This document shows positions 1 through 38,172 of a DNA stretch of 64,000 nucleotides, one piece after another. The DNA comes from a virus (lineage: Duplodnaviria > Caudoviricetes). Both the position numbers and the translations under genes were made by a program. The notes under the pieces were generated by a model. The model made no database searches, was not told the DNA's origin, and saw only the letters and a list, made by a program, of their open reading frames with translations. The DNA lies in the IMG/VR virus record IMGVR_UViG_3300008259_002461; one strand, written 5' to 3'. Numbering within the stretch: position 1 is the first letter of the stretch; each line of letters opens with the position of its first letter.

Positions 1-401
1 GATTTCCTAGTTTTCAAAGTCCGTTGGCACTACCTAATCATATTAAAGATCATTGCCATAAAAAGCTGTCAACATGGTATGCGCAAAATAAAGACCTACC
101 AGGTTGGCACGAATTTGAACGTGCAAGTATTGAAAGATTAATTGATTATCTTGTTACAGTAGATGCACCTCATCGCAGAACAAGTAATCCTATTACACTG
201 TGGAGAGACTTTAAAACTTTTTATCAGCAGTACGATCAGCGCAGATCAAAATCCATATATGTATTTCCTAAAATTTTAACAGATTGGATTGATACTATAC
301 CTGATACAGACATAGCAATAAAAGAGTTAGCAGACAAAGAAGGCTGGGTGTTAACACCTGACTCAAGGAACATTGATGATCCTATTGCGACCTACAATTA
401 A
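1..401 (+). CDS. Partial CDS, likely C-terminus of a radical SAM protein
   Basis: Frame is open from base 3 (FPSFQSPLALPNH...). The C-terminal FYQQYDQRRSKS..FP resembles the tails of the N-twitch rSAM paralogs downstream. The cluster motif lies outside the window. Confidence 0.5.
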   Translation, partial: FPSFQSPLALPNHIKDHCHKKLSTWYAQNKDLPGWHEFERASIERLIDYLVTVDAPHRRTSNPITLWRDFKTFYQQYDQRRSKSIYVFPKILTDWIDTIPDTDIAIKELADKEGWVLTPDSRNIDDPIATYN

Positions 402-1668
402 TTTATATTACGATAATATTGTTAACGGAATACCTGTTCCTAACGGCATAACACGATATAAAATTAATAAACAGTACGATATTCCAGTGATGTCTAGTTT
501 AGAATACAGTGATCAAGTCCTTAAAACTACGTATTTTTATAATGTAATGAAGGCAAACGAAGTCACAGTTAATTTGTTTACTAAAAGAGATATGGCGTCA
601 AATTTATTTTATCCATTGGAGCTTTCAAAAACAGCAATACGGAATCGTCTTATTGATATTATTCCGGAAAAGACATTAACTCGTATTAAAAAACGAAAAA
701 TGAAATTATTATTACTTTATCAACAATGGATAGGTGATTATAACTTTATGCAAAATCTTAAAGAAAGAATTGATGTATTAATTCGAAACGGAGTTCCTAC
801 TGATCAAATTTATTTAATAACCGGTGATATTAATTGTTCCTATCAGGAATTATTTGACAAGGTTAAAGTATTTGGTATTGATTGGTGGCAAATTGCTTAT
901 CAACTAACTTGTAAATCTAAGTATCAAAATATTGATTATCATTGGGTCACATTTTTACTAGATGATGAAGTGCGTGAAAGTTTTGATATCAATAATTGGA
1001 ATAATCCCAGTTTACTATTTACAGCATTAACTGGTGAATCGTCAATGCATTCACTGGCTACTATTACTGAACTAGAATCTAGAGAATTATTAGATAAAGG
1101 TTGCTATGAATTTAATGTTAAGAAAAACAAAAATCTAAATTTAGATAGTAAAATATTTACTAATGAGTCATTGTTAAATAACAAACAGTCAAAAAAAGAT
1201 ATAATTAATAATTTATTATCATCTGAGACAACTATCGCAAATATATCGGAGTCATTAGAAGACAGTCTATTTGCAATTGTAGCAGAGCCGTTCACACCTA
1301 TGATGGATAAAACGTATCTGTCAGAAACAAATGCACTATGGGTATCGCCAAATATATGGAACGCTATTGCTCAAGGTTATCCTTTTATGGTAGTAGGAAG
1401 TTTATCTACTATGCGTTATCTTAATAACGAAGGATATTTTAGTTATGTAGATCTGTTTAATGAAACATATGATAGTGTTAGTGATTTAAAAATTAAATTA
1501 AATTTAATAATGACTGAAGTTGACAGATTATCTAAATTGTCTAAAGAAGAAATTAATGATCGTATAATTTTAACAAAACCATTTATCGAGGCCAATAAGA
1601 AAAAGTTTTATGATAAAAAACACACTTGGAAATTTTACGACCTTTTCAAAGAAATGCAATATGAATAA
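373..1668 (+). CDS. Glycosyltransferase-like protein (GT-B/GT10-like C-terminus)
   Basis: SLFAIVAEP...IWNAIAQGYPFMVVG...YLNNEGYFSY, paralogous to 31123 and 33295. Confidence 0.45.
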   Translation: MMILLRPTINLYYDNIVNGIPVPNGITRYKINKQYDIPVMSSLEYSDQVLKTTYFYNVMKANEVTVNLFTKRDMASNLFYPLELSKTAIRNRLIDIIPEKTLTRIKKRKMKLLLLYQQWIGDYNFMQNLKERIDVLIRNGVPTDQIYLITGDINCSYQELFDKVKVFGIDWWQIAYQLTCKSKYQNIDYHWVTFLLDDEVRESFDINNWNNPSLLFTALTGESSMHSLATITELESRELLDKGCYEFNVKKNKNLNLDSKIFTNESLLNNKQSKKDIINNLLSSETTIANISESLEDSLFAIVAEPFTPMMDKTYLSETNALWVSPNIWNAIAQGYPFMVVGSLSTMRYLNNEGYFSYVDLFNETYDSVSDLKIKLNLIMTEVDRLSKLSKEEINDRIILTKPFIEANKKKFYDKKHTWKFYDLFKEMQYE

Positions 1669-2920
1669 AGATTTTAATAATTTTTGTGTAGCACCCTGGA
1701 TGCACTTGCACGTCATCAACGACGGTAGAGCTTTTGCATGTTGTCAAACCCCATTAAAAAACGAAAATAGTTTTGGAAATGTAAAAACTCAAAAACTTAT
1801 AGAAATTGTTAATAGTGATCAAGCTAAAGTAATGAGGAAAAATATGCTTGAAGGCAAGCCTCTGCCTACTGCTTGTGAAAGATGTACTTCTAAAGAAGCT
1901 GTTGGACTTAATAGTATGCGAACAGGCTTTAATGATAGATGGTATGCAGAAATGCAACCGTTAATTGAACAAACAGATATAGACGGTGCCATTCCTTCAT
2001 TGCAATTAAAATACTGGGATTTTAGATTTAGTAACTATTGTAATCTAGCTTGCACAACATGTTCACCACTGTTTAGTACACAGTGGGCATCTGATTGGAT
2101 TAAACTACATCCTGGATACGACAAATATTCTGAAACAAGATTAATTGATTTAGAAAAAGCAGATTTATTTTGGGACGACATTGCACAAAATTTAGATACA
2201 ATGAAGCAGATACATTTTGCAGGTGGCGAACCACTAATGATGCCTGAACATTGGAAAATTTTAAAACTACTTGATGAACGTAAAAAATATGACATTGAAT
2301 TAAGATACAGTACCAATGGGACCACGTTAGGTAGAGATAAAGACAATGTATTAGATTATTGGAAAAAATTTAAACATGTACATTTAAGTTTGAGCATCGA
2401 TGGCGAAGGTGATGCATTTGAATATATCAGATATAAAGGTAACTGGAAATCTACATTTGAAAATTTAAAACGTATACGAGAAAGCGGAGTAGTTGATTAT
2501 TGGTTTCATCCTACAGTGAGTATATTAAATATATTTAGATTAACAGAATTGCATGAAGTTTTACATAAAGCAGATCTTATGCCTTTAAAATCAATACACA
2601 AGCACATGGGCTTCAACATTGAAAATTATTGGGTTGATAGATTTCACCTGAATCCTTTGTTTACTCCTGATTATTATAGTATAACAGTTCTTCCTGCCCA
2701 TTTAAAAGATCAAGCCGCTGAAAAAATAACAAAGTATGGCAAGAAGCTTGAGGCTGACACAGCAATACCTTTTAGCGGTTGGCAAAATATTATTGATTTT
2801 ATGTATAGTGAAGATCGCAGCATACTATTTGAAAAGTTTAAATGGAAATCGCAACAGATTGATACTATTCGAAACAATGATGTTTTTGCATTTAATCCGG
2901 AGCTTATCAATGTTAAATAA
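1661..2920 (+). CDS. Radical SAM protein with N-terminal SPASM/twitch domain
   Basis: CVAPW..DGRAFACC at the N-terminus, CNLACTTC and FAGGEP. Start moved to ATG 1661. Confidence 0.9.
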   Translation: MNKDFNNFCVAPWMHLHVINDGRAFACCQTPLKNENSFGNVKTQKLIEIVNSDQAKVMRKNMLEGKPLPTACERCTSKEAVGLNSMRTGFNDRWYAEMQPLIEQTDIDGAIPSLQLKYWDFRFSNYCNLACTTCSPLFSTQWASDWIKLHPGYDKYSETRLIDLEKADLFWDDIAQNLDTMKQIHFAGGEPLMMPEHWKILKLLDERKKYDIELRYSTNGTTLGRDKDNVLDYWKKFKHVHLSLSIDGEGDAFEYIRYKGNWKSTFENLKRIRESGVVDYWFHPTVSILNIFRLTELHEVLHKADLMPLKSIHKHMGFNIENYWVDRFHLNPLFTPDYYSITVLPAHLKDQAAEKITKYGKKLEADTAIPFSGWQNIIDFMYSEDRSILFEKFKWKSQQIDTIRNNDVFAFNPELINVK

Positions 2921-3761
2921 AATAAAAAAATATATAAGAGGTTTAACTCTTGAAGAGTATATAAAATATGTAAAAACATCATCAAGTCATGTTAATAGTA
3001 TTGACGACCTTGCACAATTTGGTATTAAAAAATCAGTATGGTCTAAAGATGACTATGAGCGCGGCTATACAACTGTACTAGGTATGAATTCAGCAGAGGA
3101 AAAAATAGTAAAACCTGGAGATTGGGAGTACGTTATCAATAGATACAATTTTAGAGAAATATGGGACTTTAATTCTCCTAGACCTAAAATTGGATTTTTT
3201 GGTTGTAGTTTTACATTTGGTGAAGGTATAGAATATAAAGATACATTTGTTAGTATGGTTTCAAAGCAGTTTGACCTTAATTGTTTTAATTTAGCTATAG
3301 GTGGATCTTCTTTACAAAGGGTGGCAAAAACGTTTAGTGCTGCCTCTAAAGTAATAGATCTTGATTATGCTGTGTTTACCTTGCCGCAATGGCATAGACA
3401 AATGTATCTTGACGATCAAGGTAAAATTGTTAATCTTATACCCCAATGGCCGCATCAACAGTATGAAGAATTAAGTAATCAGCTTACTGCTTTAGACGAG
3501 GAATATTATATAGTACAAGCAGTATCTTATGTAAACTGGATACATGATTTAGCAGAACATAAAAATATAAAAATAATTTTATGTTCTTGGGATTATCCAC
3601 TAAACGATTTATGTGAGGTTATGTACCCTAATGAAACAATAAAACCTTTTCCTAATATTGATGATAAATGCGCTAGAGATAAAATGCATCCTGGTATACG
3701 TTCTCAACATGCACATGCAGAGCAAATTAAAAGAGCAATATATGATAGAGCTTGGTTTTAG
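2910..3761 (+). CDS. SGNH/GDSL hydrolase-like protein
   Basis: GFFGCSFTFG block I, NLAIGGSS block II and D..HP at the C-terminus. Start moved to ATG 2910. Confidence 0.6.
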   Translation: MLNKIKKYIRGLTLEEYIKYVKTSSSHVNSIDDLAQFGIKKSVWSKDDYERGYTTVLGMNSAEEKIVKPGDWEYVINRYNFREIWDFNSPRPKIGFFGCSFTFGEGIEYKDTFVSMVSKQFDLNCFNLAIGGSSLQRVAKTFSAASKVIDLDYAVFTLPQWHRQMYLDDQGKIVNLIPQWPHQQYEELSNQLTALDEEYYIVQAVSYVNWIHDLAEHKNIKIILCSWDYPLNDLCEVMYPNETIKPFPNIDDKCARDKMHPGIRSQHAHAEQIKRAIYDRAWF

Positions 3762-4704
3762 AAATAAAGATAATCAAATAAAATATCTTCAGATTAAACC
3801 TGATGATACAGCATTGGCATCTGCATGGACTAAACAATTAGATCATTTATTACTAACACATAATAACAAAATATTTCAAAAGAATTTTAGTTTGTTAGGG
3901 TTTCATAACGATTGCAGAACGCGAGAACATATTTGTAATGATTTAGATAGGAGTATCCAAACAATAAATTATTATAAAGCATATAGAATTAATGAAGATT
4001 TTAGTTCTTTAAGATACGAACACAATCAAGATCTTCTTAATGTTCTACATCATCATTTTGAAATAACACAAGGACAATTATGGAAACCAGGTACTGTTTT
4101 AGCTAAAGCTAATGGGGAAACAAGAAATGCAATATCTATGCTTAACCATTGTTGCCATGAATTAGAGGCATGGTATGAAACAGAAAAAAATAGCCCTGAA
4201 TGGACCAACGGATATTTTTATTATAATGTACTTGGAGTAACAGATCGTATTGAAATTCCTCTAGAAGAAAAACGAAATTTTACTAGAGACATTACTGATG
4301 GTTTAGTTTATCTTCATTATGCGCAAACAGGCAAGACATGGTACGAAGCATATCTTGACAATGATAATATAGTAGAAGCAAATGGCATTTCAGAACACAG
4401 AATAATCAGCGGCGAGTTTAATTGTTACTTTGGAACAGGCTATGAATTGCCTATGGATGACAATTTTACAAAATGGTTAGAAGCAAGAGGAGTAGATCCT
4501 ACAGACGAACAGCTTGCACTTGGTTATGCACCTGTGGGAAAAATTATTGATATGCCATATACTGAGGCAGTAGATTTTTTTAAAGAATATACAGATTTTT
4601 ACTCAATTGAATTTAATAAAAAACGCATAGAATACGACTACAGACATACTGATATTGGTTATTTTCCTATGTTAGAACGTATGTGGAGTAAATGGAATGG
4701 CTAA
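3742..4704 (+). CDS. Hypothetical protein
   Basis: Long ORF tightly coupled to its neighbours, no motif recognised. Start moved to 3742. Confidence 0.75.
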   Translation: MIELGFRNKDNQIKYLQIKPDDTALASAWTKQLDHLLLTHNNKIFQKNFSLLGFHNDCRTREHICNDLDRSIQTINYYKAYRINEDFSSLRYEHNQDLLNVLHHHFEITQGQLWKPGTVLAKANGETRNAISMLNHCCHELEAWYETEKNSPEWTNGYFYYNVLGVTDRIEIPLEEKRNFTRDITDGLVYLHYAQTGKTWYEAYLDNDNIVEANGISEHRIISGEFNCYFGTGYELPMDDNFTKWLEARGVDPTDEQLALGYAPVGKIIDMPYTEAVDFFKEYTDFYSIEFNKKRIEYDYRHTDIGYFPMLERMWSKWNG

Positions 4705-5506
4705 TTTTATTAATGGTATATGGGAAAATGCTGGAAATGAATTTTGGAATATTAAGAAACCTGACGAAATATTAGGTATAGCTCGTGTGTCTAAACACAT
4801 GTTAAGTTATTGGCCCAGAATTAAAAACTACGAAAACTACTTAATAAATTATTTTCAATACGGTATTAATAAAGAAGTAGAACCTACTATATGGTTATCT
4901 CACACAGATCCTGTGTATAACAGATATCAAGAAGAAATTGAAGGATATGTAAAAGCAGTTTGGCTTACACATGGATTTTTTACTGAAGGCGGTCTAAGAA
5001 AGCCAGTTGGGGTTCATTGGAGTCCTGTGTCTCTTGACTGGAGAATACATCCGGGTGGAACAAGACAAGCAATTATAAAATATTTTGCACCCGATGAAAT
5101 AGATTGTCTTTGTTTTAATACAGGCGGTCAACCTATGCAATTTATAAAAGAATTTAACACAGTAGAAGAAATTGCTGAATATACTAATAGCTCTAAAGTT
5201 TTTTTAGTAGTTACAGATGAACGCGGTCATTATATACCGCATGTTCATTTAGATGGATTTACTATTAAACCTGCAATGGTCGAGACACATGCACAGATGA
5301 AAAAGTTTTTTAGAAAAACTAAGATTGAAGCTAATTTTGATTTAGCTGAGTTAGGATATGATGAAACAAAAATATTAAAAACTGAAAAAAAACGCATAAA
5401 AATAACTATTGAAGATCAGTCTATGGATACAAAGGTAAAAGCAATGCTACTATTACCGTCGTTTAATAATTTTGAAGGACATGGAGTTAAAATTGAGCGT
5501 ACCTAA
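4697..5506 (+). CDS. Hypothetical protein, possible ParB/sulfiredoxin-like domain
   Basis: GLRKPVGV...WRIHPGGTRQAII resembles the ParB-N GxxR motif. Confidence 0.35.
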   Translation: MANFINGIWENAGNEFWNIKKPDEILGIARVSKHMLSYWPRIKNYENYLINYFQYGINKEVEPTIWLSHTDPVYNRYQEEIEGYVKAVWLTHGFFTEGGLRKPVGVHWSPVSLDWRIHPGGTRQAIIKYFAPDEIDCLCFNTGGQPMQFIKEFNTVEEIAEYTNSSKVFLVVTDERGHYIPHVHLDGFTIKPAMVETHAQMKKFFRKTKIEANFDLAELGYDETKILKTEKKRIKITIEDQSMDTKVKAMLLLPSFNNFEGHGVKIERT

Positions 5507-6476
5507 TCTAGAACGTGCAGTAGTTGAAGTTTTTGGGGGATGTAATTATACCTGTCAAATGTGTCCACAGACTGAAGGTAGAGGCAAGGCCTGGACACGT
5601 AAAATGCCACTTAATATGTTTGAAAATATATTAGATCAGTTACCAGGTAATCCAGTTATTAATCTTGAAGGTAGTGGCGAACCTACTCTTGCTAAAGATT
5701 TGCCTTTGTACATAGAAGCATGCACTAAACGAAATTTTCCTAGTTTTATGTATACTAATGGAAGTTTTTTCAGCGGTCATTTCATGCAAGATTGTGTAGA
5801 CGCTGGACTAAGTTTTGCAAGATTTAGCTGTATTGGATACAATAAAGAAAAATATCGTGAGTGGATGAATGTTGATAATTTTGATTTACTAAAGACCAAT
5901 GTAATAAAGGCCAAAGAGTATATTAAAAAATCTAACAGCAAATGTATACTGTCTAGTTATCATTTGATATTAGATAATACGCAAATAGATTACGAAGTTG
6001 AACAGTACCGTAATAATTTTATTGGCCCAACTGGAACGTTAGGATACATATGGAAAATGCACAACTGGAGTGGCAATTATACTCCTGTATATTTTAGAGA
6101 TCCTAAAAAACGTAGAACTTGTGGTAGACCATTTGCTCCTGAAATTACAATCCGAGCCGGTGGCAATAATGGTCTTACAGGCGCAGTTACTTCGTGTTGT
6201 CAAACAATGGGTCCACCAAACGAAAGTTTAAGTGTGCTAGGACATGTAGAAACACAATCAATAGAAGAAATATGGAACGGAGAAGCATACAATAAATTAC
6301 GTGATGCACATGCTAACAAAAATTTTGATAGTATTGATTACTGTAAGAATTGTGATTTTTTATACGACGACCCCGAGGTGTTAGTTTGGAGTAACGACAA
6401 AGCAGCATCACTAGATCATATGCTTGGAACTAATTTTAGTCTTAAAGACTTTATGGTTGACAATACTTTAAAATAA
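5481..6476 (+). CDS. Radical SAM/SPASM domain protein
   Basis: CNYTCQMC, GSGEP and C-terminal CGRPF..SCC..CKNC. Start 5481 follows GAAGGA. Confidence 0.9.
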   Translation: MELKLSVPNLERAVVEVFGGCNYTCQMCPQTEGRGKAWTRKMPLNMFENILDQLPGNPVINLEGSGEPTLAKDLPLYIEACTKRNFPSFMYTNGSFFSGHFMQDCVDAGLSFARFSCIGYNKEKYREWMNVDNFDLLKTNVIKAKEYIKKSNSKCILSSYHLILDNTQIDYEVEQYRNNFIGPTGTLGYIWKMHNWSGNYTPVYFRDPKKRRTCGRPFAPEITIRAGGNNGLTGAVTSCCQTMGPPNESLSVLGHVETQSIEEIWNGEAYNKLRDAHANKNFDSIDYCKNCDFLYDDPEVLVWSNDKAASLDHMLGTNFSLKDFMVDNTLK

Positions 6477-6491: not shown

Positions 6492-7175
6492 ATGTATGAT
6501 ATCATTTTTATTTCTTATCAAGAACCTTATGCAGACATTAATTGGGAAAGATTAAAGTCTAAATTTCCTACAGCTAAAAGAGTTCACGGAGTAAAAGGAA
6601 TTCATCAAGCACACATCCAAGCGGCAAAATTGTGTTTTACAAAGATGTTTTGGGTCGTAGATGCTGATGCAGAAATAGTTGAAGATTTTAAATTTGATTA
6701 TGTTGTTCCTGAATGGGATTTAGAAACAGTACATGTATGGCGCAGTATAAATCCTGTTAACGATTTAGTTTATGGTTACGGAGGTGTTAAACTACTTCCT
6801 CGTAAATTAACAATAAACATGGATACATCAAAAACTGATATGACAACAAGTATTAGTACGTTGTTTAAAGCAATGCCTGAAATATCTAATATTACAGCAT
6901 TTAATACTGATCCGTTTAATACGTGGAAAAGTGCATTTAGAGAATGTGTAAAATTATCAAGCAAAACAATCGATAGGCAAGACGATATAGAAACTCAGTT
7001 AAGACTAGAAGCGTGGTGTACATTAAATGAGTCAGCGCCATACGGCAAATATGCACATCTGGGAGCTATTGCTGGAAAATATTTTGGTTTGTTTTGGCAA
7101 AATGCACCTAGTGAATTAGCGAAGATAAATGACTTCGAATGGTTAAATGAACAATTTTCAAAAAATACCTTTTGA
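6492..7175 (+). CDS. GT-A fold glycosyltransferase-like protein
   Basis: DIIFISYQE N-terminal strand and FWVVDADA DxD motif. Confidence 0.6.
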   Translation: MYDIIFISYQEPYADINWERLKSKFPTAKRVHGVKGIHQAHIQAAKLCFTKMFWVVDADAEIVEDFKFDYVVPEWDLETVHVWRSINPVNDLVYGYGGVKLLPRKLTINMDTSKTDMTTSISTLFKAMPEISNITAFNTDPFNTWKSAFRECVKLSSKTIDRQDDIETQLRLEAWCTLNESAPYGKYAHLGAIAGKYFGLFWQNAPSELAKINDFEWLNEQFSKNTF

Positions 7176-8133
7176 ACAAATAGTACGCTTTGGTCAAAAA
7201 ACTTTATTAGATACTCGTCTTTTTACAGTATCGTGGATCCTTGCAAGATTCTGTAATTATAATTGTTCCTATTGCTGGCCCTATGCTAGGTCTGACAAAC
7301 CAGATCATCAAGAATTAGAATTATACCTACGTACTATTGACAGTATAAAAGCTCAAGCTCGCGCAAATAATTTTCCAGATTTTCATTTTAGTTTTAGTGG
7401 CGGCGAACCTACTGCTTACAAACAATTTGATAAAATTATAGAACATTACTGTGCGGATAGTAATGCTTTGTATCAAAGCATCCACATGACCACTAATTTA
7501 TCCCCTGGCAGTAAATGGTGGAACAATTGGTTAACTACTACAGACTCTTTACAGCGAAGAAGTATTACAGCAAGTTATCATGCTGAGTTTGCAAAAGAGC
7601 AAGAGTTTGGCGACAAATGTTTATATCTTATAAACAATGGAGTATTTGTAACCATTAATCAAGTTATGGTTCCTAATCAGTTTGATGACTTATATGCTAG
7701 ATGTGAAAGATTTGCTGAACGAGGTATTAATGTTACTTTAAAACCTCAAAGTGACCCCACCGCAAGTTTTGTAATAAATGAATACACAACGGATCAAATT
7801 GATAAAATGCAAATAGGGTTTCCGCAAGTGTGGCAAAGCGAAAATGTATCTCAAATTGAATTAGAGGATGCAACAGGTAATAAGTATTATATAGATCAAG
7901 CTGAGCGATTCAATGCATTTGGATTTAATAAATTTAAAGGTTGGTTATGTAATGCAGGATATCAAGGAATAGTAATTCGAGAAAACGAAGTAAAGCGTAG
8001 CTATAGTTGTTACGAACAACCTTTAGGAACATTAGAGCATGGGTTTGATATTTTTAAATCAGCAAAACACTGTGTAACACCTAGTTGCGTTAGTAGCGCA
8101 GATAGCAAAATACCAAAGATGAAAAATGTATAA
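7147..8133 (+). CDS. Radical SAM protein
   Basis: CNYNCSYC, FSGGEPT and C-terminal CNAG...C..PSCVS. Confidence 0.9.
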   Translation: MNNFQKIPFEQIVRFGQKTLLDTRLFTVSWILARFCNYNCSYCWPYARSDKPDHQELELYLRTIDSIKAQARANNFPDFHFSFSGGEPTAYKQFDKIIEHYCADSNALYQSIHMTTNLSPGSKWWNNWLTTTDSLQRRSITASYHAEFAKEQEFGDKCLYLINNGVFVTINQVMVPNQFDDLYARCERFAERGINVTLKPQSDPTASFVINEYTTDQIDKMQIGFPQVWQSENVSQIELEDATGNKYYIDQAERFNAFGFNKFKGWLCNAGYQGIVIRENEVKRSYSCYEQPLGTLEHGFDIFKSAKHCVTPSCVSSADSKIPKMKNV

Positions 8134-12128: not shown

Positions 12129-12130
12129 TA

Positions 12131-17308: not shown

Positions 17309-17310
17309 GT

Positions 17311-30249: not shown

Positions 30250-30276
30250 GTCATTAACCTAGTATTTTATATCTTG

Positions 30277-30288: not shown

Positions 30289-30292
30289 GTTT

Positions 30293-31126
30293 ATGAACAC
30301 AAAAATAAAAATCCCACATCTTGAGTGGCATGTTGCTCATGCTTGTAATCTATCTTGTAAAGGTTGTTGCCATCTTTCTGATTATGGGCAAAAAGGAATA
30401 GTTAGTTATAATGAGATCAAAGACTGGTATTCAAAATGGAGTCATAGACTAGCACCAAAATCAATAGACATTTTAGGGGGAGAACCTTTATTAAACAAAG
30501 ATATCTGTAAAATTATTTCTTTAACAAGAGAAATGTGGGATGATCCGTATCTAGAACAATTACAATTAACAACTAACGGACTTTTAATTCACAAATTTCC
30601 AGATTTACCTAAAGTATTAAAAGATTCTAATTGTTCTATTTCAGTGTCTTGGCATAGTGAAGATCCAAGTTATAATAAATTGTTTGATAAATCTAAAAAC
30701 ATTTTAAATGAATGGGTAGAAAAATACGGAATCCAAGTTCGTATACTAGATTTTTATAATTATTGGACTCCATTTTATAAAGGTTACGGTAGCACTATGG
30801 AACCGTTTAACGAAGAAAACTTTGAAAAAAGTTGGGATAATTGTATAACGGGACAAGATTGTTTTCAGATATATAATGGCGATATTTATAAATGCTCAAA
30901 TTTAGCGTACTTGCCTATGACTAAACAAAAAATTAATCTTTCAGAGAATTGGGATTATTATCTAAGTTATGTTCCACTAAAGCCGGAAGCTTCGGACAAT
31001 GAAATTACAGAGTTTTTTAATAAAGGTGCAGAAAAATTTTGTAGTATGTGTCCCAATTCAGTTGAAATGATTAAAAAACCAGATCCTTTAAAATTTCGTA
31101 AACAAATACTGATGAAGAAAATTTGA
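30293..31126 (+). CDS. Radical SAM protein
   Basis: CNLSCKGC, ILGGEPLL and IYKC..CSMCP, paralog of 28515. Confidence 0.88.
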   Translation: MNTKIKIPHLEWHVAHACNLSCKGCCHLSDYGQKGIVSYNEIKDWYSKWSHRLAPKSIDILGGEPLLNKDICKIISLTREMWDDPYLEQLQLTTNGLLIHKFPDLPKVLKDSNCSISVSWHSEDPSYNKLFDKSKNILNEWVEKYGIQVRILDFYNYWTPFYKGYGSTMEPFNEENFEKSWDNCITGQDCFQIYNGDIYKCSNLAYLPMTKQKINLSENWDYYLSYVPLKPEASDNEITEFFNKGAEKFCSMCPNSVEMIKKPDPLKFRKQILMKKI

Positions 31127-32331
31127 TTATGAAACAAGGAAGATTAATAAACTTTGAATTACTGTGGGATACTGACCTAAGCGTCAATGTTGTATTACCA
31201 AAACTACTTGAATTAGAATTTCAAGAAGCAGTAGCTGACGGAGTAACTACCATTTTTGGAATGTTTTTAATGGAGGGAATTTATCCGCATGATTGTCATA
31301 ATCAACAACTGTTTTTAGAAATTAAAAAAATAGCTGACAAATACAATTTAGAAGTTATTCTATTGTCAGGCCTTGGAGAAAGTTTTAACAATCAGTATAG
31401 TATAGAAAATGGTAGTATTTTAAACAATCTTCCATTTGAGGTAATATACTCATCATATCCTTTAAGAGTATGTTACAACATCATTAATAATATTCCTAGA
31501 AAATCAAAAACTATCAATAATAAGTTTTTATTCTTAGGTGGAATTCCTACTAGATTAAATAGAATTTATTTATTAAGTAAGTTGTATGAAAACAATCTTT
31601 TAATAAATGGTAAATGGTCATTTTTTATTCCGTTATCCCAAGAAGATAAAAATTATTGCAGAAATTTATTATCACATTATTCAGATGAAGAGTACGAAAC
31701 TTTTTTAAAAAACTGTACTAGCTCAATAGATGAAAAATATCAAGAAATGGCTAACTTTTTTCAAGACTATGCACCGTACGAAGAAGGCGATCTTGAAAAG
31801 TGGGGCGAAATAGTTCATACTGATTTTTGGAAAAATCCTATATACATAGATCCTGAAGTTTACGATGAAACTTCGTTAAGTATAATTTCTGAAGGTCCAA
31901 ATTATTGGTCGCCTGATTATAAATTTATTACAGAAAAAACATGGCGGACAATAATTTATAAGCATCCTTTTATATTTGCAGGCCCGCCTGAACAGTTTAG
32001 ATATATTAAACAAATGGGATTTGAAACATTTGAAAAATATATGCTTATTCAAAATTATGCACAGGTGGAAGATGAAAAAGAAAGAATTGAATTGATTGTT
32101 AAAAATGTAGAACATTTTTTAAAACACCAAACTTATCATCAAAAAGAAATACAACAAGATATTGAACATAATTTTAACTTATTCTTAAAACTAGCCAATG
32201 ATCAAAATTGTCTACTAACATCTTTAAAATCAAAATACAATATTCCTGATGCTGAGTTTTCAAAATTTTTTAGTACAACCGGCTATGAAAATTTGATTAG
32301 GCCCGTTGCCGACCTCAAAAAATTAGGCTAG
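31123..32331 (+). CDS. Glycosyltransferase-like protein (GT-B/GT10-like)
   Basis: SIISEG..FITEKTWR..HPFIFAG..GFETF. Confidence 0.5.
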   Translation: MIMKQGRLINFELLWDTDLSVNVVLPKLLELEFQEAVADGVTTIFGMFLMEGIYPHDCHNQQLFLEIKKIADKYNLEVILLSGLGESFNNQYSIENGSILNNLPFEVIYSSYPLRVCYNIINNIPRKSKTINNKFLFLGGIPTRLNRIYLLSKLYENNLLINGKWSFFIPLSQEDKNYCRNLLSHYSDEEYETFLKNCTSSIDEKYQEMANFFQDYAPYEEGDLEKWGEIVHTDFWKNPIYIDPEVYDETSLSIISEGPNYWSPDYKFITEKTWRTIIYKHPFIFAGPPEQFRYIKQMGFETFEKYMLIQNYAQVEDEKERIELIVKNVEHFLKHQTYHQKEIQQDIEHNFNLFLKLANDQNCLLTSLKSKYNIPDAEFSKFFSTTGYENLIRPVADLKKLG

Positions 32332-32363
32332 CATCATATTCGTAGTTATCAATAGTGTATGGT

Positions 32364-32403
32364 TATAAATAAGTTTATGACTATATCTGTTAGACTATCA
32401 TGA
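32364..32403 (+). promoter_or_regulatory. Late promoter plus 8-codon upstream ORF
   Basis: TATAAATA at 32364-32371, then ATG 32377 encoding MTISVRLS with a TGA overlapping ATG 32400. Confidence 0.5.
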
Positions 32404-33314
32404 AAAATAATTACGATAAACGGCATCTTCCTTTTGGACATTCTACAGCTATACAAGACAAAGAAACATTATCTTTTATCAATAATTGTAGTATCTCAAC
32501 ACAAACATTAAACGATCAAACAATTAACGAACAATTCCTTAGCAAGTATGTAGAATGGATATTGACTACAACAAATAACAAAGTAACTGGTATTGATCAG
32601 TATCCATTCAAATGTTTTTCGCAAGGGACATCTGAAGCGTTTGAAAAATTTTATATGAATTATTCTCATAGAAGATTTCGATGTTTTAAAGGCGAGTATG
32701 TTTATCATAAATTAGCTTGGAGAGATGATAGATTTAATTGGAAATACTTAGAGGATGATGCGCTTGATGCCAATGACGTAGTAATAATTAGTCAACCTTT
32801 TTCTGATACAGGCGATCAGCATCCTTTACTTAATGATATTTTAGATCAATGTGACAAACTAAATATTCCTGTAGTACTTGATTGTTGCTACTTTGGTATT
32901 TGTAGTAATATAAATTTTGATTTTACAAGACCTTGTATAAAAGAAATCATCTTTAGTTTATCTAAAACTTTTCCAGTAGCTCATATTAGAATAGGTATGC
33001 GTCTTTCAAGGATTGATAATGACGATTTGTTATTTGTGTATAACAAAAGTGGCTACACAAATAGATTAGCAGCAAGTATAGGACTTAATCTTATTAATCA
33101 TTTTGATTCTGACTACATAGTTAATAAGTATAAAAATAAACAAATTGAAATCTGTAAAAAATTAAATGTAACTCCTAGCAATACTGTGTTGTTTGGAATA
33201 GGCGGCTCTGAATGGCAGGAATACAATCGTGATAGAGCTACTAACAGATTAGGATTACATAATTTTTTACACATGGAAGATACAGAGTGCTTAGATGAAT
33301 ATGTCAAAATCTAA
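32400..33314 (+). CDS. PLP-dependent aminotransferase-like enzyme (fold type I)
   Basis: VVLDCCY and FSLSKTF (PLP lysine)..RIG. Confidence 0.75.
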   Translation: MKNNYDKRHLPFGHSTAIQDKETLSFINNCSISTQTLNDQTINEQFLSKYVEWILTTTNNKVTGIDQYPFKCFSQGTSEAFEKFYMNYSHRRFRCFKGEYVYHKLAWRDDRFNWKYLEDDALDANDVVIISQPFSDTGDQHPLLNDILDQCDKLNIPVVLDCCYFGICSNINFDFTRPCIKEIIFSLSKTFPVAHIRIGMRLSRIDNDDLLFVYNKSGYTNRLAASIGLNLINHFDSDYIVNKYKNKQIEICKKLNVTPSNTVLFGIGGSEWQEYNRDRATNRLGLHNFLHMEDTECLDEYVKI

Positions 33315-34482
33315 AATTATAAATTTTGAATGGATGTGTGATCACAATCATTACACCCATGAACAATTTGATAAAATTAAAACTGATTTAATTAAAAAAG
33401 ACATTGATCAAGCCATAGATGAAAATGTTGATACTGTTGTAGGGCTTTATCTAATGGATGGGTTTTTACAACCTAAGTATAGATACAAAGAGTTTATTTT
33501 GCACCTAAACGAAATAAAAGATTATGCTTACAATGCTGGAATTAAAAAAATAATTCTAATAAGTGGCCATGGCGAAACATTAGATAATTGTCCCTTTGAA
33601 TACCTGTTTTTAGATTTTAATCTTAGATTATTAATTAATAGCTATCCTGATCTAAATGTATTACCTAAATTCAATCCTGAAAATACAAAGTTTCTCTTTT
33701 TAACTGGCATGCCAAATAGACCTAATCGTATAGGTCTATTGAGCAAGTACTATGATAAAGATTTATTAGACACTGCTGAGTGGAGTTTTTTTGGCCCATG
33801 GACACCTATGGATCAATCTTGGTGTAGAGAATATCTTAAACATTATAGTGATGAACACTACAATACATTTTTAATTAATTGTGAAAGATCTTTTGATAAT
33901 AGATATGAAACGTGTAAGCCATTCTATGGATCGTATACTTCAACGGAAAATGCACCGCTATGGTATGATGTAGTTAATATTGACTGGGTTCAATTACCCA
34001 GTCATATTGATTCTAAAGTATATAGCGATACACTTTTTAGTGTTATATCTGAAGGTCCAAATTTTTGGTCTGAAGATTGGAGTTTCATTACAGAAAAAAC
34101 ATGGCGAACTTTTTTACATCGTCATCCTTTTATATTTGCCGGGCACCCTGATCAATTTAGATATATTAAGAAACTTGGATTTAAAACATTTGAAGAATAT
34201 TTGTTAATCAAAGATTACGCCTATATTGAAGATGAAAATGAAAGACTAGATGCTGTAGTCAAAAATACAGAATACTTATTAAAAAATATAAAAAATAATT
34301 TAGATGCTATAGAAAAAGACGTAGAATATAATTATCAAATGTATTTTAATCATGTAAACAATCAGGATAAAATTTTTAAATTCTTAAAGCACGATTTAAA
34401 TGTTTCGTCAGATGATATCCAGCCATATGCTAATATCAAAGGTTATCCGTATCTCATTAGGAGAATACCTGATGGATTCTAA
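33295..34482 (+). CDS. Glycosyltransferase-like protein (GT-B/GT10-like)
   Basis: Close paralog of 31123: SEGPN.W..FITEKTWR..HPFIFAG. Confidence 0.5.
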   Translation: MNMSKSKIINFEWMCDHNHYTHEQFDKIKTDLIKKDIDQAIDENVDTVVGLYLMDGFLQPKYRYKEFILHLNEIKDYAYNAGIKKIILISGHGETLDNCPFEYLFLDFNLRLLINSYPDLNVLPKFNPENTKFLFLTGMPNRPNRIGLLSKYYDKDLLDTAEWSFFGPWTPMDQSWCREYLKHYSDEHYNTFLINCERSFDNRYETCKPFYGSYTSTENAPLWYDVVNIDWVQLPSHIDSKVYSDTLFSVISEGPNFWSEDWSFITEKTWRTFLHRHPFIFAGHPDQFRYIKKLGFKTFEEYLLIKDYAYIEDENERLDAVVKNTEYLLKNIKNNLDAIEKDVEYNYQMYFNHVNNQDKIFKFLKHDLNVSSDDIQPYANIKGYPYLIRRIPDGF

Positions 34483-35404
34483 ATGTGCAGCTTTCTGGAA
34501 ACATACTAATGTTCGTAGCGATAACAAAATATTTCCCTGTTGTAGATTTAAGAATCCTGTAGATAATTTCAACGGCGATTTAATTCATATATTAGAGTCC
34601 AGTGCATATAAAGAACTTAGAAAAAAAAGTTTAAACGGTGAATTTATCCAAGGTTGCGAAAAATGCTATTACGAAGATGCCAACGGTAGGCAAAGTCTTC
34701 GACAACGATTAAACAAAGAATATACTACTGACACAGTTGAATTAGAATTTTTAGAAATAGGGTTTGACAATATATGTAATTTAACCTGTGACGGATGCTG
34801 GAGTGATTTTAGTTCCGAGTGGAGTAAAAAACTTAACCCTACTGCAAACAAGATTACTCACTATCGTTCAGTTGATGAGATTGTTAAAGTTCCGTCTAGT
34901 ATTAAAAAAATACTCTTTTTAGGCGGTGAACCTTTAATGACCAACCGGCATGAAAAGTTTTTAAAACTAATTGAAAATCCAGCAGCAGTTGAAATAATTT
35001 ACAACACTAACGGAATGTTTTTGTTAAAAGAAGAATTTATTAATTTTTTACATCAGTTTAAATCGGTAAAATTTACGTTAAGTATTGATGGGTACAAAGA
35101 TCTAAATAACAAAGTTAGATCTGGAAGTAAGTGGGAAGATATTTTAAGTTTTATAGAACAGATATCTAAATCTAACTTTGATCTAGAAGTGAATACAGTG
35201 TTACATTTAAATAACTGGCACGGAATAAAGGAGCTTGAATCCTTTATACAACAATTAGGAGTACCGTGGATAGTAAATGTTTTAACATATCCTACACATT
35301 TAGATATTTCTAATTTTGAACAAAAGGAACAAATTATTAATTTGATTAGCGAAACAAACATTCCAAATAAAACTTATGTCATTAACCATCTATTACATAA
35401 TTAA
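34472..35404 (+). CDS. Radical SAM protein with N-terminal twitch domain
   Basis: CAAFW..FPCC, CNLTCDGC and LGGEP. Start 34472 follows AGGAG. Confidence 0.88.
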   Translation: MDSKCAAFWKHTNVRSDNKIFPCCRFKNPVDNFNGDLIHILESSAYKELRKKSLNGEFIQGCEKCYYEDANGRQSLRQRLNKEYTTDTVELEFLEIGFDNICNLTCDGCWSDFSSEWSKKLNPTANKITHYRSVDEIVKVPSSIKKILFLGGEPLMTNRHEKFLKLIENPAAVEIIYNTNGMFLLKEEFINFLHQFKSVKFTLSIDGYKDLNNKVRSGSKWEDILSFIEQISKSNFDLEVNTVLHLNNWHGIKELESFIQQLGVPWIVNVLTYPTHLDISNFEQKEQIINLISETNIPNKTYVINHLLHN

Positions 35405-35419: not shown

Positions 35420-36040
35420 ATGAGTTCAGAATTTTATCAGTATTTTGATTATCCAAATTGGTTAGAACATCAAAAAAAATTGTTAGCATATAGACAATTA
35501 AAGATGGCTGACATCGTAACTGACAATCAATCATGGGCTGCGTTAAACTATGATGAATTTTCTATGGATTTAAAAGATGTTATTGACGATTATGCACAGC
35601 TTGGTCTATACATAAAACAGTTAATTTTTATATCTTTCCCCCCTACTGATTTAAATTCTACAGACATGAATGATCCAAAAACAATTTATATACATGTTGA
35701 CAGTAAGGATGACGATGAACATTTGTTAAAGGAATCAGCTCCTACATTGTTTTCTCCAAGATATGTATTTAATATTCCATTAATAAATTGTGAAAACAGT
35801 ACTACGTTTTTTTATGATTTTATAGATCCAAATAAACACACAAAAGACACTCATGTATATTTTGGAGGTTGTGTCGATTACAGTAATGTAGTTGAAGTGG
35901 ATAAATTTACTCTTAACAAACCTGCATTTCTAAAAGTTAGTGTTCCCCATGCAGTGCATAATCCTACTGATAGTTTAAGAATTGTTTGTAGTATGCGTGT
36001 TGATGATAGTAGTCCATTACTAAAAAGGCTTTTCAAATGA
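35420..36040 (+). CDS. Putative 2OG-Fe(II) oxygenase/cupin
   Basis: YIHVD...PHAVHN..R. Confidence 0.6.
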   Translation: MSSEFYQYFDYPNWLEHQKKLLAYRQLKMADIVTDNQSWAALNYDEFSMDLKDVIDDYAQLGLYIKQLIFISFPPTDLNSTDMNDPKTIYIHVDSKDDDEHLLKESAPTLFSPRYVFNIPLINCENSTTFFYDFIDPNKHTKDTHVYFGGCVDYSNVVEVDKFTLNKPAFLKVSVPHAVHNPTDSLRIVCSMRVDDSSPLLKRLFK

Positions 36041-36612
36041 CATCAACTATAAGCTGTAAACGGTATATTGAATATAACAAGATTATTAGTGCTGTAGATT
36101 CAATGGCTAAAAAAGTTGCAGAATTTAGAGAAACTATGTCAAGTGATATGTACGACTTGACTCAAGTTGACCCGGCTCCTGATTTAACAGACATACATCC
36201 TAGAGATAGAAAAAATGTTAAAATTCTTTGCGGTGCTTTGCCCTTTGATGGAAAACCAAACTTAGGCAAACTATTAAAAGAAGAATCAGATATACTAACA
36301 AATTTAAAAGGATATTCTGCTGGGTTTGTTTTCTTTATGACTCCAAATTCAATCTTACCATTACATGTACACGGCGAATATGTAGCGAAAGATTCAAACG
36401 ATACAATAGGAGTTTGGAATGCCTGTTTTGGAATTACAGTACCGTCGACAGATTCTAACATGGTAGGTATAGAAGTAAACGGTGAAGTTTATTCTCATGG
36501 TCATAATGTAGATGTAACATTTGACCCACAAACACCGCATCAAGCATGGAACCACACTAACGAGTGGTGGACTATGTTAATCTTAAATATTGATAAGAGA
36601 TTTTTTATTTAA
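36037..36612 (+). CDS. AspH-like cupin oxygenase
   Basis: LPLHVH...PHQAWN. Confidence 0.65.
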   Translation: MTSTISCKRYIEYNKIISAVDSMAKKVAEFRETMSSDMYDLTQVDPAPDLTDIHPRDRKNVKILCGALPFDGKPNLGKLLKEESDILTNLKGYSAGFVFFMTPNSILPLHVHGEYVAKDSNDTIGVWNACFGITVPSTDSNMVGIEVNGEVYSHGHNVDVTFDPQTPHQAWNHTNEWWTMLILNIDKRFFI

Positions 36613-36622
36613 AGGAAATATT

Positions 36623-37681
36623 TTGAAAATATCAACAAATAATCATTGGGATCCATTAGAAGAAATAATTGTAGGCATAGCTGATCATGCACGAGTGCCT
36701 ACAGTGGACAGAAGCACCATGAATATGAGCTACAGTAACTATAGTATGGATAGTGTTAAACCTTTAGAAGGAGCATATCCTCAATGGTTAATTGATGAAG
36801 CTAACGAAGACTTGGAAGGATTGGCTACCGCGCTAAGAAAAGCCGGAGTTAAAGTACATAGACCAAAGCCGTTAGATCACAGTAAACAGTTTAGTACACC
36901 AGAGTGGCAAACTACTGGTTGGTATACTTGGTGTCCTAGAGACTTACTGTTGCCGTTAAAAAATCTAATTATTGAAACGCCTAGTGGGTGTCGTTCTAGA
37001 TATTTTGAAACTAGGGCATATCACGATATAATGTTAGAAGCAGTTCGAGATGGAGTTGAATGGATAGCAGCACCTAAACCTATTCTATTAGATGAAGGCT
37101 ATCAATTTGAAGATATACAAGGAAAGCCAAGTTTATTAAATTTAGAACCTATATTTGATGCTCCTAACTGTGTGCGTTTGGGTAAAGATATTTTATTTCA
37201 AATTTCAAACACTGGTAATCATTTAGGAATGCAATGGTTAAAAAATGTGCTTGAACCTAGAGGTTATAGAATACATGCGGCAGAGCATATTTACAGTTTT
37301 GCTCATATGGATAGTACCATCGTTCCTTTAAGTCCGGGGAAAGTTTTGTTAAATAGTACTAGAGTCACGCCTGAAAATTGTCCTAAGATATTTGAAAAAT
37401 GGGATAAGATATGGTTTAAAGATGTAAATATTAATCCTACTACAGAAACCGGACCAGGCAGTATCAGTCCGTGCAGTCCGTATATAGGAATGAATATTTT
37501 AAGTATAAACCCTAGTACAGTAATAGTAGGCGAAGATCAGATTAATTTAACAAGAGTTTTAGAAAAACAAGGATTTGATGTAGTACATGTAAAAATGCGG
37601 CACGCTCAAACACTTAGTGGCGGACTTCATTGTACTACTTTAGATTTAAGAAGAACAGGATCGTTAGAGGATTATACATGA
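36623..37681 (+). CDS. Amidinotransferase (glycine/inosamine-phosphate amidinotransferase family)
   Basis: WDPLEEIIVG, CPRD, HMDST and GGLHC (catalytic Asp/His/Cys). TTG start follows AAAGGA. Confidence 0.9.
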   Translation: MKISTNNHWDPLEEIIVGIADHARVPTVDRSTMNMSYSNYSMDSVKPLEGAYPQWLIDEANEDLEGLATALRKAGVKVHRPKPLDHSKQFSTPEWQTTGWYTWCPRDLLLPLKNLIIETPSGCRSRYFETRAYHDIMLEAVRDGVEWIAAPKPILLDEGYQFEDIQGKPSLLNLEPIFDAPNCVRLGKDILFQISNTGNHLGMQWLKNVLEPRGYRIHAAEHIYSFAHMDSTIVPLSPGKVLLNSTRVTPENCPKIFEKWDKIWFKDVNINPTTETGPGSISPCSPYIGMNILSINPSTVIVGEDQINLTRVLEKQGFDVVHVKMRHAQTLSGGLHCTTLDLRRTGSLEDYT

Positions 37682-38172
37682 TTGAGTTTGTAACAAATAT
37701 AAAAGATTTTTGGTCAACTGATTTAGAAAAATTTGTCTTTCCAGTTATGTCACCTCTTAACACTAATGTAAGAGATTATTGGAATCATCCTAATTTTCAA
37801 AATGCCAAACCTCTCTTGCAAGCATTTGACAATGATTTACCAGAGTATTGGAATAAATTTCTAATTGAGCTAGGTACAACAGAAGGTACAGTATCTTGGA
37901 CTAACCTAGTACCGGGTCAAGTCCTACCTGTTCATACTGATGAGTTTTATAAACTAAGAACCAAGTACAATGTTGATATAGAAAAATGTAGAAGATATTT
38001 AATTTTTCTAAATGATTGGGTACTTGGACATTCTGTTGATTTTGAAGAAAAGACTATAACAAGATGGAAGTGTGGAGATGTTTGGTTATTTGATCATCGT
38101 TCATTCCACTGCGCCGCTAATGCTTCTACAGTAGATTTTATAACCTGTCAGGTTAATACTATTACGATTTAA
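37678..38172 (+). CDS. 2OG-Fe(II) oxygenase (AspH-like)
   Basis: LPVHTD...FHCAAN. Start moved to 37678. Confidence 0.72.
   Translation: MIEFVTNIKDFWSTDLEKFVFPVMSPLNTNVRDYWNHPNFQNAKPLLQAFDNDLPEYWNKFLIELGTTEGTVSWTNLVPGQVLPVHTDEFYKLRTKYNVDIEKCRRYLIFLNDWVLGHSVDFEEKTITRWKCGDVWLFDHRSFHCAANASTVDFITCQVNTITI

Follow-up and report, generated by a model that had tools for sequence, protein, structure and literature searches.

The 64,000-nt stretch of viral DNA analysed here (IMG/VR record IMGVR_UViG_3300008259_002461; this stretch, at its full length, is hereafter the window) carries most of a ~45-kb island of phage genes that includes 15 radical S-adenosylmethionine (rSAM) genes. We tentatively read this island as a late-expressed, cytoplasmic sugar-tailoring factory, located in the host-recognition region of the genome and probably decorating the virion; our confidence in this reading is somewhat short of even. 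Window positions 1-39314 hold 45 tightly packed contiguous open reading frames (ORFs) and one fibre gene, with a coding density of ~100% and a longest intergenic gap of 68 nt, in agreement with the ~46 contiguous coding sequences counted in an initial annotation of this DNA. That annotation also placed the end of the island beyond the left edge of the window. The island indeed continues ~7 kb to the left, as far as collar-domain fibre genes and the gene of a 5192-aa protein; its left part includes further rSAM coding sequence and, just left of the window, a nucleotide-diphosphate (NDP)-sugar epimerase/dehydratase gene. Thirteen of the rSAM genes are complete in the window, one (g01) crosses its left edge, and one, encoding a 460-aa protein, lies to the left.

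The CxxxCxxC motif occurs in exactly 13 window proteins, all with a Pfam Radical_SAM match (13/13), which bears out the initial count of 13 complete proteins plus a partial one. The partial protein, g01, represents the C-terminal 132 aa of a protein of 482 aa, whose start lies left of the window; the family alignment of g01 contains the motif (CNLACSYC) and an N-terminal Cys cluster, and Pfam gives no rSAM match for it. According to Pfam, the SPASM domain of g07 and g10 is C-terminal, and in g03, g12, g13, g17 and g41 a SPASM-like segment precedes the radical SAM core (in g03, residues 26-93 are SPASM and 140-296 Radical_SAM); g33 has no SPASM match. Five proteins (g03, g12, g17, g33 and g41; scores in Table 1) belong to NCBIfam family NF033640 (N_Twi_rSAM, twitch domain-containing radical SAM protein), whose curated cut-off is a whole-protein score of 170 bits; g13, at 54 bits, is a non-member despite its N-terminal SPASM/twitch segment. 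Invariant in the five paralogs are C153, C157 and C160 of the cluster motif and, in the N-terminal region, C21, C39, C96 and C99. The role of the rSAM proteins is not readable from homology. By analogy with BtrN, they may carry out C-H oxidation, epimerisation or similar reactions on sugars. The twitch domain of BtrN is C-terminal, and BtrN was absent from the PDB matches of the N-twitch profile. A conserved non-rSAM partner of the N-twitch proteins was also considered and dropped; the g01-like neighbours are rSAM proteins themselves.

Four glycosyltransferase (GT)-like proteins, three of the GT-B type (g02, g38 and g40) and one of the GT-A type (g08), are supported at the fold level, in line with the four to five first proposed. 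The predicted folds of g08 and g38 come only from AlphaFold2 (AF2) models; PDB profile searches gave no useful match for the g02/g38 or g08 families. The g38 model (pLDDT 90.3, pTM 0.91) has a GT-B fold with two Rossmann-like domains. In VIA, 49 of its 50 best chains were GT-B folds, nearly all glycosyltransferases (Z 8.5-11.2, 250-280 residues aligned), and its Foldseek matches were weaker (best E 2.7e-3). The g40 protein is 39% identical to g38 (E 1.6e-100), and hhalign links the g02 and g38 families with a probability of 98.1% (E 1e-13). The g38-type family comprises 2788 cluster representatives; none of 70 members had a Pfam match (0/70), and an atlas feature search for g38 returned only a GT10 lead, at chance level (score 0.78). 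The g08 model (pLDDT 91.6) has a GT-A fold (nucleotide-diphospho-sugar transferase-like), with a nearly invariant DxD motif (D57/D59) and a VIA Z of 10.8 across residues 1-137. The best Foldseek match of g08 was the PBCV-1 capsid glycosyltransferase A64R, and its top matches were GT-A enzymes or nucleotidyltransferases; a GT-A-type enzyme is predicted, and a nucleotidyltransferase role is also possible. This family has >5000 proteins, and Pfam offers no model for it or for the g38-type family. A 214-nt deletion (window 6940-7153) in L019, a lake assembly from JGI that contains this phage, joins g08 to g09 in frame. The 475-aa product, composed of the first 149 residues of g08 and the rSAM g09, is a natural Rosetta-stone-like variant or, possibly, an assembly artefact.

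The initial amidinotransferase call was strongly confirmed. A profile of g44 and three homologs matched StrB1 (PDB 1bwd, E 3.2e-69), 5wpi (1.6e-60), 6u1r (2.7e-58) and AGAT (5e-56), and residues G344, H347, C348 and T350, at a GGLHC motif with the C-terminal catalytic His-Cys, are invariant. Judged from these matches, g44 is a genuine L-arginine-dependent amidinotransferase of the StrB1/AGAT/SxtG/HsvA family. To our knowledge, the characterised relatives that it matched all act on small-molecule amines. Upstream of g44 on the same strand lies g39, for which a pyridoxal phosphate (PLP) enzyme had been proposed. An invariant SxSK lysine, a weak Aminotran_1_2 match and aminotransferase matches in PDB (E 0.015) lend weak support to a fold-type-I, aminotransferase-like enzyme, and a pair of g39-like and g44-like genes was found again in cellular loci.

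Among the ten cupins listed initially, seven cupin or 2-oxoglutarate (2OG) oxygenases are supported by Pfam or by paralogy, and the remaining three gained no support. The seven are g36 and g43 (Asp_Arg_Hydrox; Table 1), g24 and the paralogs g22/g23/g32/g45, a family with a weak Asp_Arg_Hydrox match only. In g24, a cold-shock domain (Pfam CSD, E 4.5e-8) is joined to 2OG-FeII_Oxy_3 (E 3.4e-10; prolyl-4-hydroxylase type); this unusual architecture is kept in both independent assemblies. In locus L063 (3516-5939), g34-like and g36-like domains form one 807-aa protein; here, the rSAM g35 separates the two genes. The nearest annotated atlas cluster of g34 is a 688-aa viral family with Asp_Arg_Hydrox in 97% of its members (score 0.82, a lead only).

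The four SGNH-like proteins first named (g04, g15, g18 and g31) hold up: they have GDS/GCS motifs and are linked in an all-vs-all hhalign comparison of the non-rSAM ORFs (g04 with g18, g15 with g31 and g04 with g15), their single Pfam match being a weak one (GDSL_2, g31). Pfam also identifies one of two proposed methyltransferases, g29 (Cons_hypoth95, Methyltransf_3 and PrmA); the other, g11, is a candidate at the motif level (a GxGxG-like motif, with a putative methyltransferase as best PDB match, E 0.099). The short-chain dehydrogenase/reductase (SDR)-like pair g25/g26 is weakly supported. The kinase-like reading of g21/g28, which lack a conserved kinase motif, is unsupported, as is the GNAT-like reading of g27, for which no family or useful PDB profile match was found; PDB profile searches gave no useful match for g19 and g11 either. 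Around 20 ORFs have no family in the Pfam, PHROGs or NCBIfam searches, and the largest groups among them are those explained by the AF2 models of g08 and g38. Among the conserved proteins, g05 has invariant His, Cys and Glu residues and is 62-74% identical in 13 related phage contigs, with no match in Pfam, PHROGs, PDB profiles or the atlas feature search.

The island is set between fibre genes. Left of its enzymes are the 5192-aa protein and a Collar-domain fibre protein, and its right boundary is the Mtd_N fibre gene g46, which has a 43% identical counterpart at the same place in a related IMG/VR contig (G001). This position matches the host recognition cluster of pelagi- and cyanomyophages. 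The content of the island varies by cassettes: G001 keeps both flanks (flank proteins 43-90% identical), is without the g31-g45 block (14 kb of the island) and has g20-g23 inverted, beside the fibre gene, and the contigs of 13 relatives (L001-L013) keep most of g01-g12 at 36-85% identity.

Intergenic sequence amounts to 2.3% and holds five of the six occurrences of TATAAATA (P 4e-8) and 14 of the 68 occurrences of TAAATA (P 4e-10). These T4-type late motifs are located at every divergent island junction, before g39 and before the fibre gene. By analogy with T4, they may act as late promoters, and their location at operon starts suggests that expression of the island genes begins together with that of the structural ones. 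Gaps with TAAATA or TATAAATA also occur outside the island, at 39345, 40564, 44132, 49200, 60409 and 63275, and could be used as a phage promoter map.

The island is true phage DNA, as had been assumed. Its proteins are letter-for-letter identical in 41-62 blocks of public assemblies, contigs bearing them or >90%-identical variants reach 320-384 kb, and the complete island DNA is present in lake or freshwater metagenomes from at least 12 studies. The right part of the window encodes a split family-B DNA polymerase, closest to those of the jumbo phages Atu_ph07, Phosso and RaK2, together with FolE, QueE, a 5'-3' exonuclease and a MoxR/VWA pair. A chimeric bacterial insertion was ruled out, because independent assemblies show the same synteny and G001 has the same flanks. 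Megablast of both window halves against 50,697 phage records gave no match. The best explanation is that the carrier is an uncultured jumbo phage of the T4 superfamily, abundant and widespread in fresh water. Three small contigs (L023, L024 and L030), binned as Crocinitomicaceae and Thermoplasmata metagenome-assembled genomes, look like mis-binned relatives of this phage; their copies of the g12 rSAM are 63-66% identical in L023 and L024 and 42% in L030, and L024 also has homologs of g20-g23.

In a scan of GTDB genomes with three paralogs as query, the N-twitch rSAM family was found overwhelmingly in Bdellovibrionota, complete chromosomes included, and often in tandem arrays of 7-8 genes. The same cellular loci contain homologs of g08, g09, g10, g11, g34, g36, g39 and g44. 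Four of the seven loci with Pfam-annotated neighbours have GTs at most 10 kb away (GT2, GT4 and GT28 types), two of these four with AsnB-like amidotransferases and one with a UDP-sugar dehydrogenase and a PMT_2-type GT; another two of the seven lie among housekeeping genes. A Pfam tally of 136 neighbours revealed no dominant partner and no hallmark of RiPPs (peptides that ribosomes make and that are modified after translation), the commonest families being GT2 and TPR, with three each. On a Bdellovibrionales chromosome (L102, 2387-13922), an array of eight N-twitch-type rSAM paralogs adjoins AsnB-like, GT2 and UDP-sugar dehydrogenase genes. On a 1.27-Mb contig labelled Parcubacteria (L114, 1-20347), 13 rSAM genes are interspersed with aminotransferase, GT4 and AsnB-like genes, and GT28 follows.

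Taken together, these results favour a sugar or sugar-like small molecule over a peptide as the substrate, because four GT folds, an epimerase/dehydratase, an aminotransferase-like gene and an amidinotransferase are present; because the gene set is wholly soluble, with no transmembrane segment in any true island ORF and no exporter; because there is neither room nor signature for a precursor peptide; and because the cellular relatives have partial glycan contexts. Of the glycan or nucleotide substrate first put forward, the sugar or small molecule is supported; a hypermodified base gained no support as the main purpose and is improbable, with only g19 and g24 pointing to nucleic acid. Virion proteins are our best guess for the acceptor, given the fibre genes on either side, the late motifs and the variation by cassettes, with which the virion glycan suggested at the outset is consistent, short of proof.

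From the families and folds, we infer the following order of steps. Host nucleotide-sugars would first be oxidised, dehydrated or epimerised by the epimerase/dehydratase, the SDR-like pair and the twitch/SPASM rSAM proteins, in the manner of BtrN. The PLP-like g39 would transaminate the product, and g44 would turn the amine into a guanidino group, with arginine as the donor. Hydroxylation by the seven cupin/2OG oxygenases, methylation by g29 and perhaps g11, and acyl addition or removal by the four SGNH-like proteins would follow, and the three GT-B and one GT-A proteins would attach the product to its acceptor. The final place of the product would be the virion, with fibres or other surface proteins as its most likely carriers, and there it would influence adsorption or recognition.

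Several observations weigh against such a virion-decorating sugar factory. The QueC-like g19 and the cold-shock-domain oxygenase g24 sit inside the island, and the best structural matches of g38 include the DNA-glucosylating T4 enzymes AGT and BGT, with Z-scores tied with those of other GTs. Sugars are not the classical substrates of Asp_Arg_Hydrox enzymes, whose hydroxylation targets are protein residues or the acyl chains of lipid A. The nearest solved rSAM structures match with E 3e-8 or worse, and their substrates span lipids, nucleotides and peptides; no experiment ties NF033640 members or these cassettes to any substrate. One of the seven cellular loci (Paenibacillus) is an acyl carrier protein (ACP)/ketosynthase lipid-type cluster, and ~10 island ORFs fit no recognisable family. 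Some non-structural genes, too, have late-promoter-like motifs in front of them (e.g., TAAATA before FolE). As for RNA, it amounts to three 151-nt contigs in one metatranscriptome, possibly carried-over DNA, and three small lake metatranscriptomes gave nothing from the island.

A more specific version of the sugar-tailoring proposal is that NF033640 and its partner rSAM proteins are a new class of sugar-modifying radical enzymes, that ~15 of them, with the GTs and the amidinotransferase, build a radical-tailored, guanidino-bearing glycan on tail fibres, which would be a novel type of post-translational virion decoration that tunes host recognition, and that these genes are exchanged with surface-glycan loci of Bdellovibrionota. 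We regard this version, as a whole, as a possibility on the doubtful side.

The substrate might instead be the virion proteins themselves, modified directly by SPASM/twitch rSAM proteins and Asp/Asn-type hydroxylases (cross-links, epimerisation or hydroxylation) in the manner of proteusins or sactipeptides, with sugars added afterwards. Fibre genes do flank the island, Asp_Arg_Hydrox enzymes are known for the hydroxylation of protein residues, and the secondary NCBIfam matches of the island rSAM proteins are mostly to peptide maturases (YhhB, PapB, StsB and SkfB). These matches are all far below the cut-offs, however, because the rSAM core is common. Additionally, the initial annotation saw no evident precursor peptide, and we agree: the gap survey leaves no room for its gene, and neither an RRE/PqqD domain nor a leader peptidase or ABC exporter appears among the Pfam matches of the 46 ORFs (E <= 0.01). 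Neither the amidinotransferase and the PLP enzyme nor the epimerase and the SDR-like proteins would have a role in direct modification, and the cellular arrays, set among housekeeping or glycan genes, come with no conserved substrate protein. We consider it unlikely.

Quite unlikely, in our judgement, is the remodelling of the host envelope (lipopolysaccharide, capsule or another surface glycan) during infection, e.g., to block superinfection, which has been proposed for the GTs of the equivalent pelagimyophage region (PMC7029224). The cellular relatives that adjoin a GT2, a PMT_2-type membrane GT and a UDP-sugar dehydrogenase fit this idea, as does the hypervariability of the island, a property of O-antigen loci too. 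Nevertheless, no membrane protein is encoded in the island, no flippase, polymerase, polyprenyl-phosphate transferase or exporter was found among the Pfam matches of the 46 ORFs, and the late motifs suggest action near lysis, with little time left for a change of the surface.

A role in phage DNA hypermodification, with a tailored sugar or side chain on 7-deazaguanine or on a hydroxymethylated pyrimidine, we hold to be improbable. The QueC-like call for g19 was borne out by its PP-loop motif (SGGADS, of the SGGxDS form), a C-terminal Cys motif and a PHROG match (E 2.6e-7). FolE and QueE are encoded outside the island, at 46298-49148, 29-32 kb from g19 and 8-11 kb right of the island. The cold-shock nucleic-acid-binding domain of g24 and the T4 alpha- and beta-glucosyltransferases among the top structural matches of g38 point the same way, as does Campylobacter phage CP220, which has a mini-version of the island and fully ADG-substituted DNA (bioRxiv 10.1101/2023.04.13.536721). 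Many non-DNA GT-B enzymes, however, reach the same Z-scores as the T4 enzymes. The 7-deazaguanine pathway comprises FolE, QueD, QueC, a DpdA, a few tailoring enzymes and QueE, the last also a radical SAM enzyme; it uses no dozen-plus rSAM proteins, amidinotransferase or SGNH enzymes, and the same study describes no glycosyl derivative (bioRxiv 10.1101/2023.04.13.536721). Furthermore, the 7-deazaguanine genes other than QueC are in the conserved flank, and the island varies between relatives that keep this flank. Most likely, the QueC step provided by g19 belongs to the FolE/QueE pathway and not to the island chemistry, and the three genes may form a split 7-deazaguanine DNA-modification pathway.

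Finally, the StrB1-type amidinotransferase, the aminotransferase, the twitch rSAM proteins (BtrN) and the GTs resemble aminocyclitol pathways, namely those of streptomycin and butirosin. A diffusible aminoglycoside- or aminocyclitol-like guanidino compound, released at lysis and hitting competitors or the host, is nonetheless very improbable, even with the label of 'antibiotic synthesis genes' given by the authors of the Synechococcus phage S-SCSM2R study (PMC12801897): no inositol-phosphate or 2-deoxy-scyllo-inosose synthase was found, the Pfam matches include no resistance gene or exporter, the place among fibre genes and the cassette shuffling better fit a structural decoration, and a slow antibiotic would be of little gain to a lytic phage.

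Table 1. Genes and motif-bearing gaps of the island and its right boundary, with coordinates in the window.
Gene or gap	Coordinates	Strand	Identity	Basis
g01	3..401	+	C-terminal 132 aa of 482-aa rSAM	family alignment
g02	376..1668	+	GT-B-like, g38/g40 family	hhalign; no Pfam/PHROG match
g03	1661..2920	+	N-terminal twitch rSAM, NF033640	379 bits
g04	2910..3761	+	SGNH-like hydrolase/acyl-esterase	GCSFT + HPG motifs; hhalign g18 100%, g15 90%
g05	3742..4704	+	conserved, fold not recognised	invariant His/Cys/Glu
g06	4697..5506	+	no Pfam/PHROG family match	
g07	5481..6476	+	rSAM, C-terminal SPASM	Pfam
g08	6492..7175	+	GT-A fold	AF2, Foldseek, VIA
g09	7147..8133	+	rSAM	Pfam
g10	8126..9112	+	rSAM, C-terminal SPASM	Pfam; island protein nearest to three CP220 rSAMs
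g11	9102..9707	+	candidate Rossmann-type methyltransferase-like	GxGxG-like motif
g12	9704..11098	+	N-terminal twitch rSAM, NF033640	415 bits
g13	11055..12152	-	rSAM, N-terminal SPASM/twitch	under NF033640 cut-off
g14	12131..13222	-	rSAM	Pfam
g15	13247..13918	-	SGNH-like, GDS motif	g31 paralog, 41% identity, hhalign 99.9%
g16	13915..14802	-	rSAM	Pfam
g17	14795..16042	-	N-terminal twitch rSAM, NF033640	320 bits
g18	16032..16640	-	SGNH-like, g04 paralog	hhalign 100%
g19	16625..17308	-	QueC-like PP-loop ATPase	motifs, PHROG match
g20	17363..18022	+	no family match (Pfam, PHROG)	
g21	18024..18701	+	g28 paralog	hhalign 100%; no conserved kinase motif
g22	18694..19269	+	cupin-type oxygenase-like	g22/g23/g32/g45 paralogy
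g23	19262..19822	+	cupin-type oxygenase-like	paralogy
g24	19827..20858	+	cold-shock domain + 2OG-Fe(II) oxygenase	Pfam
g25	20855..21295	+	short SDR-like	weak adh_short match; g26 paralog
g26	21292..21891	+	short SDR-like	g25 paralogy
g27	21865..22473	-	no family; GNAT call unsupported	
g28	22409..23104	-	g21 paralog	hhalign
g29	23094..24065	-	class I SAM-dependent methyltransferase	Pfam
g30	24111..24926	+	no family match	73% identical in relative G001
g31	24926..25660	+	SGNH-like	weak GDSL_2; hhalign to g15
g32	25657..26154	+	cupin-type oxygenase-like	weak Asp_Arg_Hydrox; family link
g33	26123..27298	+	N-terminal twitch rSAM, NF033640	233 bits
g34	27295..28518	-	two-part protein linked to Asp/Arg hydroxylase	L063 fusion
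g35	28515..29561	-	rSAM	Pfam
g36	29503..30249	-	Asp_Arg_Hydrox Fe/2OG oxygenase	Pfam E 3.5e-8
g37	30293..31126	+	rSAM, orthologue-like of S-SCSM2R ORF306	Pfam; 39% over 266 aa, E 6e-64
g38	31123..32331	+	GT-B fold glycosyltransferase-like	AF2, VIA
g39	32400..33314	+	fold-type-I PLP enzyme-like	weak Aminotran_1_2, SxSK
g40	33295..34482	+	GT-B glycosyltransferase-like, g38 paralog	39% identity
g41	34400..35404	+	N-terminal twitch rSAM, NF033640	212 bits
g42	35420..36040	+	no family match	
g43	36037..36612	+	Asp_Arg_Hydrox oxygenase	Pfam E 4.3e-6
g44	36590..37681	+	L-arginine-dependent amidinotransferase	PDB profile
g45	37630..38172	+	cupin-type oxygenase-like; similar to S-SCSM2R ORF308	paralogy
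g46	38169..39314	-	tail-fibre protein, right island boundary	Pfam Mtd_N E 2.3e-9
gap g19/g20	17309..17362	divergent	TAAATA late-promoter-like core on both strands	
gap before g30	24066..24110	+	ATAAATA	
gap g36/g37	30250..30292	divergent	overlapping TATAAATA, both strands	
gap before g39	32332..32399	+	TATAAATA; starts PLP-GT-rSAM-oxygenase-amidinotransferase run	

To the right of the island, three further features of the window deserve mention. Just beyond the fibre gene, at 40848-43327, a conserved gene pair encodes a MoxR-type AAA ATPase and a DUF2201 metallopeptidase/VWA-like protein, 70-81% identical in G001. The split of the family-B DNA polymerase (58184-60346) involves at least three neighbouring ORFs, a feature shared with Atu_ph07/RaK2-type jumbo phages. 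A 505-aa protein (61730-63247), whose gene is preceded by a late-promoter-like motif, has a central segment common to several PHROGs without known function and a weak endolysin-like C-terminus.

With 15 rSAM genes and at least three Pfam-less protein families in one phage locus, the island is a large reservoir of unassigned enzyme chemistry. Modules of this kind have been a puzzle in Campylobacter phages since 2010, and cyanophages, pelagiphages and predatory bacteria have them too. Should the product decorate fibres, phage host recognition in lakes and oceans would gain a further chemical layer, and the N-twitch rSAM family would receive its first function. Two cultured phages, S-SCSM2R and CP220, carry small versions of the island, which makes the question directly testable.

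Several known systems come close to the island. In Campylobacter phages CP220 and CPt10, Timms et al. 2010 (PMC2853527) described 11-12 rSAM genes as 'highly unusual' and their cluster as an interchangeable module. As here, a T4-like phage has a variable cluster of rSAM, amidinotransferase and GT-A-like genes, with no assigned function in either case. The CP220 cluster, located near baseplate genes, contains five rSAM genes, two genes of the nucleotide-diphospho-sugar-transferase fold and an amidinotransferase gene whose product shares 35% identity with g44. The island described here is ~4 times larger and has in addition the NF033640 subfamily, the three GT-B proteins, the seven cupin oxygenases and the four SGNH-like proteins; the CP220 rSAM proteins resemble g09, g10, g14 and g16, not the N-twitch set.

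In pelagi- and cyanomyophages, the host recognition cluster (Zaragoza-Solas et al. 2020; PMC7029224) contains fibres, GTs and rSAM cassettes and is likewise a large, non-syntenic island in the structural region that gains and loses cassettes; its published description is at the annotation level. The boundaries of that cluster are a giant VrlC-type protein and the neck protein gp14, and here a 5192-aa protein stands at the left. The present phage differs in its Atu_ph07/RaK2-type polymerase lineage, its much larger genome and the excess of enzymes over fibres. In Synechococcus phage S-SCSM2R, GTs, a PLP enzyme, an rSAM protein, a 2OG oxygenase, an amidinotransferase and a GT2 are encoded in one contiguous stretch, with a tryptophan halogenase close by. 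Its rSAM protein is 39% identical to g37, its amidinotransferase 34% to g44, and its oxygenase is like g45; its authors interpreted the cassette as one for antibiotic synthesis (PMC12801897). S-SCSM2R differs in having a single rSAM gene and GTs of recognisable Pfam families.

Soluble, cytoplasmic, virus-encoded GTs decorate structural proteins in chlorovirus PBCV-1, whose A64R is the best Foldseek match of g08, and in mycobacteriophages. We know of no rSAM or amidinotransferase participant in either system, and attachment to the virion would be the corresponding step here. The mycobacteriophage case concerns capsid and tail glycosylation (cited in PMC12619734). The aminocyclitol pathways share the logic of a twitch rSAM dehydrogenase (BtrN), an aminotransferase and an amidinotransferase (StrB1); no cyclitol synthase is present in the island. 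For NF033640, to which five island proteins belong by score, the family is named and the reaction unassigned; the Bdellovibrionota members lie among housekeeping or polysaccharide genes, whereas the phage members lie among fibre genes. The island was rightly called uncharacterised at first, and the kind of module to which it belongs, noted in 2010, is known and uncharacterised too; the version described here is by far larger and richer.

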